DNA from: Escherichia coli | GTDB lineage: Bacteria > Pseudomonadota > Gammaproteobacteria > Enterobacterales > Enterobacteriaceae | Assembly (NCBI RefSeq): GCF_003334335.1 | Contig: NZ_QOWQ01000042.1 | DNA length: 38,099 nucleotides | Direction: 5' to 3' (one strand) | In this document: piece after piece, positions 8,555-9,473 of the stretch | Numbering within the stretch: the stretch's first letter is position 1 | Layout of the letters: every line of letters begins with the position of its first letter | Translations under genes and position numbers: made by a program | The notes under the pieces: generated by a model | The model's database searches: none | What the model was told of the DNA's origin: nothing | What the model saw: the letters and a program-made list of their open reading frames with translations, nothing else

Positions 8555-8800
8555 TCACCGGATTACCACATCCCACTCCGGCTCCTGCCATCTCAAATCC
8601 GGTGAATCATTTCTCTCAGGAATAACCATTACGTCCTTTTCCCTTCGCTCCCTTTCTATCGCCATCACAGCCAATGCTGCAACCATGATGTATTTTTGTT
8701 CGTCGGTTCCTGTTTCATAACGACGCATGAGGGTAAACTCGGGGCGATCAGTAACCTCAATGATTTCGTTAATTTCTTTAATTTCGCGAGGAATATCCAT
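8555..8800 (-). CDS. hypothetical charged protein (81 aa); start codon overlaps the divergent DUF4145 gene start
   Basis: Met at 8800..8798 with AAGGAG 9 nt upstream on the minus strand (MDIPREIKEINEIIEV...). No family recognised. Real versus spurious not resolvable by eye. Confidence 0.35.
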   Translation of the reverse strand: MDIPREIKEINEIIEVTDRPEFTLMRRYETGTDEQKYIMVAALAVMAIERERREKDVMVIPERNDSPDLRWQEPEWDVVIR

Positions 8801-9473
8801 GGGTTTAGTCTCCTTTGATATCACATGCCCGCACTGTTTAAAAGAGCGAGCTGTTATTGAGGCATTTGCCGAAAAACAAATTGAAAAAACACCTTTTTTT
8901 AACGTCGCTTTTGTATGCAGAAGTTGTCATCGAGGAGGTGTTGCTATTGTTGAAATCCCATCAGACCACTATCACGGTCCCATGGCGGAAAGCCAGAAAA
9001 AAGACCTCGATATTCTGATTTCAGGAAATAGCCAGTACCGTTTCCGCAAGATCTATCCTGTGGTCAAAAAAATTACCGCACCAGAATATACGCCCCCGGT
9101 TGCAGACCGTACTTTTGTTGAGGCAAAAGAGGATTTACAGAGGAGGCGGTACGACACAGTGGTTATTCTTTGTCGCAGAGTCCTCGATATCTCCACGAAA
9201 AAACTGCTCGGCGATGAAGCAGGAAAAGAATCGCTGTCGCAACGTATTCAGATGATTTACAAAAAAGGCCTGATCACTGAACAGATGAAGGAATGGGCTC
9301 ATATTGTACGAATTGATGCCAATAAAGCAGTTCATACAGATGAAGTTTTCACACCAATTGAGGCAAGCCAGATCCTGAGTTTTACCGAAATGTTTTTAGT
9401 CTACGCCTTCACTCTGCCTGCAATGGTGGAAGCCAGACGTGAACAAAAAAGATCAGATTCAGCCTCTATATGA
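8799..9473 (+). CDS. zinc-ribbon plus DUF4145 (HEPN-like) protein, candidate abortive-infection/defence effector
   Basis: N-terminal CPHC...CRSC zinc ribbon. C-terminal RRVLDISTKKLLG...WAHIVRIDANKAVHTDEVF...ILSFTEMFLVYAF fits the DUF4145 pattern (R-x2-[GA]N-x-AxH) as recalled. GAGGAA RBS. About 38% GC and opposite to the surrounding operon. Confidence 0.6.
   Translation: MGLVSFDITCPHCLKERAVIEAFAEKQIEKTPFFNVAFVCRSCHRGGVAIVEIPSDHYHGPMAESQKKDLDILISGNSQYRFRKIYPVVKKITAPEYTPPVADRTFVEAKEDLQRRRYDTVVILCRRVLDISTKKLLGDEAGKESLSQRIQMIYKKGLITEQMKEWAHIVRIDANKAVHTDEVFTPIEASQILSFTEMFLVYAFTLPAMVEARREQKRSDSASI

Follow-up and report, generated by a model that had tools for sequence, protein, structure and literature searches.

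Can two divergent genes share their start codons, so that each carries the ribosome-binding site of the other, and what would such an arrangement be for? This question is raised by a locus in a 38,099-nucleotide stretch of Escherichia coli DNA (contig NZ_QOWQ01000042.1, assembly GCF_003334335.1), referred to here at its full length as the window. In the window, a plus-strand gene encoding a DUF4145 protein and a minus-strand open reading frame (ORF) encoding 81 amino acids (the small ORF) begin head-to-head within a single CATG. A sequence-only reading of the window had proposed that either one of the two ORFs is spurious or the two are a tightly interlocked divergent pair. We found that both genes are almost certainly real and form a selected, interlocked pair. 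Truly overlapping divergent start codons are rare and are usually blamed on annotation error; here they are real and are kept down to 20-50% protein identity. The locus is a clean natural example of two genes each bearing the ribosome-binding site of the other.

The junction has the sequence context GCGAGGAATATCCATGGGTTTAGTCTCCTTTGAT, and the stretch from 8784 to 8835 reads TTCGCGAGGAATATCCATGGGTTTAGTCTCCTTTGATATCACATGCCCGCAC. The two genes overlap by 2 nt, with starts at 8799 on the plus strand and 8800 on the minus strand, as the sequence-only reading had placed them. The same overlapping pair is annotated by NCBI PGAP in 36 complete E. coli genomes, and both genes are present in the RefSeq record of Shigella phage 75/02 Stx. 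Because the CATG is shared, each ribosome-binding site falls within the first codons of the other gene, and any two transcripts that span both starts are perfectly complementary over that region. The two Shine-Dalgarno sequences that had been noticed, GAGGAA for the DUF4145 gene and AAGGAG for the small ORF, are predicted to form duplexes of -5.9 and -8.7 kcal/mol, respectively, with the 3' end of 16S rRNA, compared with a background mean of -1.6 kcal/mol, which bears them out.

We gathered DUF4145 loci from species genomes and from IMG/VR and read the strand opposite each DUF4145 start. In all 38 distinct versions of the pair from other genomes, the junction is a CATG and the homologous small ORF is open, so that the conservation check called for by the sequence-only reading came out in favor of the 81-amino-acid ORF. 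The ATG of the DUF4145 gene is invariant, lies nine codons ahead of the first zinc-binding cysteine, and is the sole possible start in 23 of the 38 loci, with no in-frame alternative upstream. The ATG of the small ORF is likewise invariant (38/38) and is the sole possible start in 13 loci; in many of the remaining loci, its one alternative is a GTG within a GTGAGG Shine-Dalgarno sequence. Shine-Dalgarno-like duplexes of -4 kcal/mol or lower were found upstream of the DUF4145 gene in 92% of the loci and upstream of the small ORF in 61%, compared with 16% of random positions. In most DUF4145 homologues that have no such partner, position -1 is A, G, or T. These patterns indicate that the overlap of the start codons is genuine and that the CATG arrangement exceeds what chance would produce.

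We then considered whether the small ORF codes for protein, using for the selection analysis a 55-codon core of its 38 distinct nucleotide versions. All versions belong to one family that has diverged down to 20-50% protein identity. None contains an in-frame stop, while the other frames contain 2-6 stops per sequence. The ratio of nonsynonymous to synonymous differences per site (pN/pS) was 0.44 in frame, where pS is saturated at 0.70, and fell to 0.08 when only pairs with pS of 0.1-0.3 were taken; four of the five other frames gave 1.06-1.41, and the fifth, an antisense frame, gave 0.58. Residues I11, R20, P21, E22, and L25 are invariant and A43 and G46 are nearly so, with codon positions 1 and 2 fixed, and third-position entropy at these seven codons is 1.5-2.0 bits. 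AlphaFold2 predicted three helices (residues 3-16, 20-30, and 33-57) with predicted local distance difference test scores of 90-96 over residues 1-50, followed by a disordered tail. A reading in which only the DUF4145 gene is real, the small ORF having arisen by chance on the antisense strand or through faulty annotation, would fit the narrowness of the close family, which occurs in 48 of 5426 complete E. coli genomes, always with at least 95% nucleotide identity, and the lack of a Pfam match to the small protein. It is extremely improbable given an ORF that is open with an invariant ATG in all 38 diverged versions, is conserved with codon periodicity, has a pN/pS well below 1 in frame and at least 1 in four of the five other frames, is confidently folded by AlphaFold2, and is kept with new starts after loss of DUF4145 (see below). 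We therefore rejected the first of the two proposals of the sequence-only reading, as both genes are conserved. The small ORF is, by this codon-level evidence, a protein-coding gene under purifying selection, and the second proposal, a tightly interlocked divergent pair, is strongly supported by the conservation of both genes and of the CATG junction.

The small ORF matches one family of the PHROGs database, phrog_8371 (function unknown), over its full length (E 6.8e-56; residues 1-81 against 81 profile positions). The family consensus is MNxxxLSNEIxxILxSSDRPEFTLxQRYETSSxDQKxxFVxALIGKLIEQDR, followed by a variable tail, and the length of the partner ORF ranges from 54 to 93 codons across loci, with one Zoogloeaceae locus at 130 codons. 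An exhaustive phmmer search of 1.84 billion representative proteins found three distant small-protein relatives (43-52% identical), each encoded head-to-head with a DUF4145 gene in unrelated lambdoid prophages. The small protein had no match in Pfam, NCBIfam, or PADLOC and no sequence match in the PDB, and its best Foldseek match had an E-value of 4.7. A tblastn search of 50,697 phage records found the small ORF only in E. coli and Shigella phages; the idea that it is a named nin-region gene of well-studied phages was dropped, as it was not found among them.

To see how tightly the two genes are linked, the association was followed in both directions. Every locus of the partner-bearing DUF4145 subfamily has the CATG start and a divergent ORF of the small family. 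In the reverse direction, a search of IMG/VR with the small-ORF profile retrieved 32 loci; in all of them (32/32), CATG joins the small ORF to a DUF4145 gene that is full-length and has the R-x7-H motif. A hidden Markov model of the small ORF built without the two most distant members recovered both of them (Photorhabdus, E 1.7e-19; a Zoogloeaceae metagenome-assembled genome, E 3.7e-12) and gave exactly one match per locus, always at the junction. The pair thus ranges from E. coli to Photorhabdus and a Zoogloeaceae metagenome-assembled genome.

Exceptions to the pairing are confined to E. coli. Among the 48 E. coli genomes with the small ORF, 36 have the pair, 1 has a DUF4145 gene cut by an IS3 element, and 11 have lost the DUF4145 gene. 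In the interrupted case (E. coli S1-CAM-02-A, 2745-4374), the IS3-family insertion cuts the DUF4145 gene after 137 codons and the small ORF is intact. In these 11 genomes, where other sequence has taken the place of DUF4145, homology ends exactly after codon 3 of the small ORF, which stays open from a new GTG start (MNNKIN...) with a GAGG of its own, and one cluster of small proteins of this type is found on 170 contigs. A 96-amino-acid ORF on the opposite strand of this variant was considered as an alternative inverted gene and judged probably spurious, as it has no PHROG while the annotated 166-amino-acid gene that it overlaps has one. A further contig (L145, 2930-3252) carries a chimeric ORF in which about 30 codons resembling the N-terminus of an ASCH-type phage protein run in frame into codon 6 of the small ORF. 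The chimera is preceded by GGAGG and GTG, and we read it as the remnant of a deletion that removed DUF4145.

What, then, does the DUF4145 gene encode? The Pfam family DUF4145 (PF13643), described as a divergent HEPN RNase domain (PMC3710099), matches residues 118-197 of the protein (E 8.1e-9) and was found in 83 of 83 homologues. The protein has the all-alpha fold of HEPN domains, and HEPN toxins of type II toxin-antitoxin pairs (7ae2 and 5yep) were among the structural matches. A single-sequence search of the PDB with the DUF4145 protein gave no match. Four cysteines, C10, C13, C40, and C43 (CPHC...CRSC), are invariant among 20 homologues, with beta strands predicted there by the model, and R171, D173, N175, and H179 are also invariant in the same set (R171-x-D-x-N-x3-H179). 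The x7 spacing of the arginine and histidine is outside the canonical HEPN motif R-x4-6-H and equals that of R146/H154 in RAZR. RAZR, or PD-T7-4, is a ring-activated zinc-finger RNase that acts by abortive infection, and its mechanism was solved in 2026 (Nature; PMC13017515). It assembles around portal rings of phages and Erf-like recombinase rings, which activate it, and its zinc finger sets specificity (PMC13017515). By its sequence features, the DUF4145 protein appears to be RAZR-like and not a RAZR orthologue. Its architecture suggests a role in defence.

In five Logan contigs (L010-L012, L014, and L015, at 4349-5002), the stored gene calls list a 67-amino-acid product despite an intact 217-amino-acid DUF4145 gene; that these were pseudogenes was ruled out, and the short call is a gene-calling artefact. 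A head-to-head overlap can lead gene callers to omit or shorten one partner. In Burkholderia phage phi644-2 (2481-3139), the DUF4145 homologue appears under-annotated, with gp55 covering only its last 104 codons and the 40-codon gp54 annotated on the opposite strand across its end. The CATG at the start of this homologue was considered as a possible paired locus and rejected, as the antisense ORF is 13 codons long and the C at -1 is a chance occurrence. A second DUF4145 subfamily (212 amino acids, starting MAM...) sits in inverted orientation between the lysis genes and the gene for the terminase small subunit, 33 nt from the start of the latter; it is found in Klebsiella phage 2b LV-2017 (KY271395.1, 2001-2630), where the gene is unannotated, and in loci L085-L106.

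The pair was found to behave as a unit in evolution. A 1341-bp block containing the DUF4145 gene, the small ORF, and ninB is 97-98.6% identical across prophages with different replication modules, and it is this identity despite differing replication modules that indicates that the pair moves as one mosaic unit. Within the pair, the identity of the small ORF followed that of the HEPN part (Spearman 0.73) more closely than that of the zinc-finger segment (0.37), although the latter is the one physically adjacent to it. Where small ORFs are at least 90% identical, zinc fingers fall to as low as 28% identity and HEPN parts stay at or above 78% (loci L047-L093 and L108-L139). Since the zinc finger varies beside a near-identical small ORF and HEPN part, it behaves as an exchangeable specificity cassette. 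The zinc finger of RAZR has also been reported to be an exchangeable specificity part (PMC13017515).

We next considered the setting in which the pair is expressed (Table 1). Over the tested stretch, the window shows 100% identity to Escherichia phage PhiR5_2, and it aligns colinearly with a lambdoid prophage of E. coli G1/2 (98-99.8% identity). Its early-right operon runs on the minus strand through cro, cII, O, and the DnaC-like, DUF1627, and DUF977 genes, and later the ORF6N antirepressor-like gene and ninB; the prophage also encodes Bet. The plus-strand inserts in this operon are a toxin-antitoxin module and the DUF4145 gene, and the small ORF lies between them on the operon strand. In the window and in all related loci, the pair is located in the early region of a lambdoid prophage, with the DUF4145 gene in the slot between the replication genes and ninB. 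In the flanks of the 38 distinct loci (about 3 kb), the strand of the small ORF holds 93% of the coding capacity, and DUF4145 is typically the sole inverted gene. In three loci, the next early gene starts before the small ORF has ended, with overlaps of 4 nt in two and of 29 nt in the third, where that gene is ninB. We can thus describe a conserved two-gene cassette of lambdoid prophages, in which the gene for a RAZR-like RNase is inverted within the early operon and its partner lies on the operon strand.

Table 1 Features of the DUF4145/small-ORF locus and its surroundings in the window.
Feature	Position	Strand	Description
CATG junction, common to both start codons	8798-8801	both	Read in the sequence; in 38/38 distinct paired loci and 32/32 loci retrieved with the small ORF
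DUF4145 gene	8799-9473	+	ATG 8799-8801; 224 aa; opens MGLVSFDITCPHC; zinc finger and DUF4145/HEPN RNase domain (predicted), RAZR-like architecture
Small partner gene	8555-8800	-	ATG is CAT at 8798-8800; stop 8555-8557; 81 aa; N-terminus MDIPREIKEINEII / MDIPREIKEINEIIEVTDRPEF
Shine-Dalgarno GAGGAA of DUF4145 gene	8788-8793	+	5 nt before the plus-strand ATG; within small-ORF codons 3-5 (I-P-R)
Shine-Dalgarno AAGGAG of small ORF	8810-8815 (reverse complement)	-	9 nt before the minus-strand ATG; within DUF4145 codons 4-6 (V-S-F)
Candidate DUF4145 promoter position	8696-8723	+	TTGTTC-16-TAACGA, poor -10; homologous to the recurrent site
9-bp G+C hairpin	8513-8533		Predicted fold; between the stop of the helix-turn-helix antitoxin (8500) and the small-ORF stop (8555)
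RelE/HigB-type toxin and helix-turn-helix antitoxin	7741-8500	+	Plus-strand insert
DUF977 / 'Ren-like exclusion protein'	9506-9943	-	Upstream of DUF4145; phrog_142, E 3e-39
DUF1627 gene	9953-10723	-	Early-right operon
DnaC-like gene	10749-11489	-	Early-right operon
O	11496-12578	-	Early-right operon
cro	near 13.3 kb	-	G1/2 annotation mapped onto the window
ORF6N antirepressor-like gene	6881-7555	-	Early-right operon strand
ninB	6416-6826	-	Early-right operon strand

The sequence-only reading had supposed that each promoter would have to lie inside the other gene. This held only in part. As the small ORF is on the strand of the early-right operon, it needs no promoter inside DUF4145 and can be served, as part of that operon, by antisense read-through from pR; the DUF977 transcript would continue antisense across the DUF4145 gene into the small ORF. 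We consider it probable that the small ORF is expressed from the early operon. The constraint remains only for the promoter of DUF4145, which must be located in the small ORF or upstream of it on the plus strand. With a simple sigma-70 scan of the window, no promoter was found near the junction in either direction, and a position weight matrix (PWM) scan of the 38 loci found no recurrent promoter-like site for the small ORF in the first 220 nt of DUF4145, where scores did not exceed background. On the DUF4145 strand, the PWM scan found a recurrent site, TTG[AC]TC-16 nt-TAnnnT, with its -10 element ending at -76, which was among the top two in about 14 of the 38 loci and scored only around background maxima. 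The TTG of this site is the reverse complement of the CAA codon of Gln36 in the small ORF, which is unusually conserved at its third position. Expression of the DUF4145 gene in the window may come from a weak promoter or from transcripts of the toxin-antitoxin operon that read through a 9-bp hairpin. This hairpin has no clear T-run on either strand and is kept in loci with different toxin-antitoxin genes, for which reason we take it to be a mosaic boundary, the left edge of the conserved block.

These data bear on a reading in which the small protein acts in the lysogen and regulates or assists the RNase, perhaps as a transcription factor for the embedded promoter or as a sensing subunit, so that the pair would be a two-gene defence system. 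The strict co-occurrence of the genes, their inheritance as one mosaic block, and the correlation of small-ORF identity with HEPN identity would all be expected. However, co-expression needs a promoter inside DUF4145, where none recurs, and two mRNAs that are complementary across both ribosome-binding sites would be ill suited to joint expression. No known DNA-binding domain is recognizable in the small protein (no Pfam match; Foldseek best E 4.7), orphan small ORFs are retained with newly gained starts after DUF4145 loss, and RAZR and the partner-less DUF4145 homologues show that a zinc-finger HEPN protein can stand alone. We consider this explanation decidedly unlikely.

Other features of the region were also noted. 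Toxin-antitoxin-like modules appear to insert preferentially in the slot convergent with the small ORF, which in different E. coli prophages is occupied by RelE/HigB and a helix-turn-helix protein, TumE and HVO_A0114, or an extra HigA (window 7741-8500; L004, L005, L007, L009, and L145). Upstream of the ORF6N antirepressor-like gene (7555-6881), the minus strand carries a good promoter-like site (TTGACG-18-TATATT, 7830-7801) and, beyond it, a strongly structured leader and a hairpin of terminator type with a T-run (7748-7725); the region 7835-7715 resembles a short RNA or an attenuated leader. Within the DUF4145 coding region, the early-operon strand has a terminator-like hairpin followed by TTTTTT (9222-9204). 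An active hairpin here would make the small ORF and the genes after it dependent on antitermination.

The conserved partner in this prophage-borne branch raises a further question: how can a temperate phage carry a ring sensor without killing its own lytic cycle? The sequence-only reading had mentioned an effector with an immunity factor or regulator and built-in transcriptional interference. Of these, effector and immunity together with interference is our preferred reading and is plausible. In a lysogen, pR would be repressed and the RNase gene alone expressed, from a promoter embedded in the small ORF or, in the case of this window, possibly from one upstream on the plus strand. The RNase would then serve as an abortive-infection sensor against superinfecting phages. 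Upon induction, or upon infection of a new cell, transcription from pR would run antisense over the RNase gene and shut it off by polymerase collision and masking of the ribosome-binding site. The same transcript would be translated into the small protein, which would neutralize pre-existing RNase, probably through its HEPN part. As a result, the phage's own proteins would not trigger the suicide of the cell in which it replicates. We hold this full scheme, a toggle between lysogeny and lytic growth with the small protein as a self-immunity factor, to be a serious possibility that falls somewhat short of an even chance.

Several observations suggest an inhibitor or self-immunity function for the small protein, an assignment that we make tentatively. 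Its expression would coincide with the phage's own lytic cycle, its gene is strictly linked to the RNase gene, and its identity is tied to that of the HEPN part. It survives the loss of DUF4145 by means of new starts, as a counter-defence gene would, and a portable defence cassette must tolerate any portal or recombinase of the phage that carries it (here Bet).

A number of results weigh against this reading. AlphaFold2 modeling of the DUF4145 protein joined to the small protein by a 30-residue linker, with a paired alignment, gave a predicted template modeling score of 0.49 and did not support a complex, about which the model is uninformative, and confidence for the small protein was lower in the fusion than when it was modeled alone. 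Fold searches with the fusion model returned generic HEPN domains, and the RAZR structure 9y9c was not among the listed matches. The likeness to RAZR on which the scheme draws is weak in sequence: the PADLOC model of PD-T7-4 matched only residues 85-183 (E 0.0022, 15.5 bits), and a profile of 20 homologues against PDB 9y9c was marginal (E 0.24). RAZR itself is a single gene and is not toxic alone (PMC13017515). DUF4145 homologues at other prophage positions, namely in the interval between the lysis genes and terS, beside an excisionase-like ORF, and beside an HNH-like ORF, have no such partner within 3 kb; an inhibitor is thus not universally required, or is encoded elsewhere. In addition, no convincing sigma-70 promoter for DUF4145 was predicted in the window by either the simple scan or the PWM. 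Finally, adjacent genes are co-inherited by linkage alone, so that linkage is no proof of functional coupling.

Some of the same results would fit a toggle that acts at the RNA level only. The overlapping starts would then make RNase expression and lytic transcription exclude each other by collision of polymerases and pairing of antisense RNA, and the small protein would have an unrelated early-phage function, its gene being merely the first of the operon after the inverted insert. The absence of any sign of a complex in the fusion model agrees with this, as do the persistence of the small ORF without DUF4145 behind a new start codon and its translational coupling to downstream nin genes. Elsewhere in prophages, too, DUF4145 genes lie inverted at a very short distance from an operon gene (33 nt for the terminase small subunit) with no special partner. 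On the other hand, the small-ORF family is found only beside DUF4145 outside one E. coli lineage, and it is absent from other GenBank phage records, whereas a gene with a general early function should also turn up in many phages without DUF4145. The sequence of the small ORF also tracks the HEPN domain and not the neighboring DNA. We regard an RNA-level toggle without immunity as rather unlikely.

We return to the preferred reading, that of an RNase with its own immunity factor. In its strongest form, the small protein would be a dedicated inhibitor of RAZR-like HEPN RNases, the CATG would be a selected mutual-exclusion device, the pair would be a portable module with its own off-switch, and orphan copies would serve in counter-defence; this combined claim is slightly more doubtful than the assignment of an inhibitor. 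If true, the cassette would fit any lambdoid phage, whatever its portal or recombinase, and orphan small genes in RNase-less phages would act against cassette-bearing lysogens. An inhibitor would represent a new family of anti-defence proteins and a tool to switch off RAZR-like RNases. If the small protein is not an inhibitor, the locus would still be a compact model of antisense and collision control between lysogenic and lytic transcription.

How does the pair compare with known systems? The closest likeness in architecture is to RAZR. Both proteins are of about 220 amino acids, with a Cys4 zinc finger starting CPHC, a C-terminal DUF4145-type HEPN domain, and an arginine and histidine seven apart (R146/H154 in RAZR, R171/H179 in the DUF4145 protein), and the zinc finger is the part that varies most in either family. 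The sequence similarity between them, however, is only marginal (PADLOC E 0.002; PDB 9y9c E 0.24), and the RNase activity and ring activation of the DUF4145 protein are predictions from its architecture. RAZR has been described as a single gene, with no partner or prophage context reported (PMC13017515), whereas the genes of this DUF4145 subfamily have a conserved partner interlocked at the start. We found no description of the partner gene in that paper (PMC13017515) or elsewhere in the searchable literature. Among relatives of RAZR, a RAZR-like gene of a Streptococcus prophage is inverted, with a small divergent gene 58 nt away, and that of a Vibrio filamentous phage is co-directional; in neither do the starts overlap.

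The pair also differs from HEPN-MNT type II toxin-antitoxin systems. A HEPN RNase with a tightly linked small neighbor gene is common to both, but a type II toxin-antitoxin pair is a co-directional operon with a recognizable antitoxin, in this case a nucleotidyltransferase. The genes of the cassette are instead divergent with overlapping starts, and the small partner has no recognizable domain and lies in a different transcription unit.

For the putative immunity function, there are three precedents. BstA with its aba element is a prophage-borne abortive-infection system with cognate self-immunity (PMC8585504). Like the cassette, it combines a prophage-borne defence gene (putatively so for DUF4145) with an element at the same locus that could protect the resident phage, and the two travel as a module; the likeness is one of position, strand, and co-inheritance. 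Whereas aba is a DNA element inside bstA, the candidate immunity factor in the cassette is a separate protein gene on the opposite strand. The second precedent is Ren of lambda, encoded in the early-right operon between the replication genes and ninB, which lets lambda escape exclusion by RexAB of its own prophage. Ren occupies the same operon slot as the cassette. It has no sequence relationship to the small protein (the label 'Ren-like' belongs to the gene upstream, 9506-9943), and lambda rexAB, located in the immunity region, does not interlock with ren. The third is Dmd of T4, which inhibits the HEPN toxins RnlA and LsoA. Dmd belongs to the attacking phage and not to the element that encodes the toxin, and the small protein has no sequence or fold similarity to any solved structure searched. 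Self-immunity conferred by the small protein would function as Ren does for Rex, aba for BstA, or Dmd for RnlA and LsoA.

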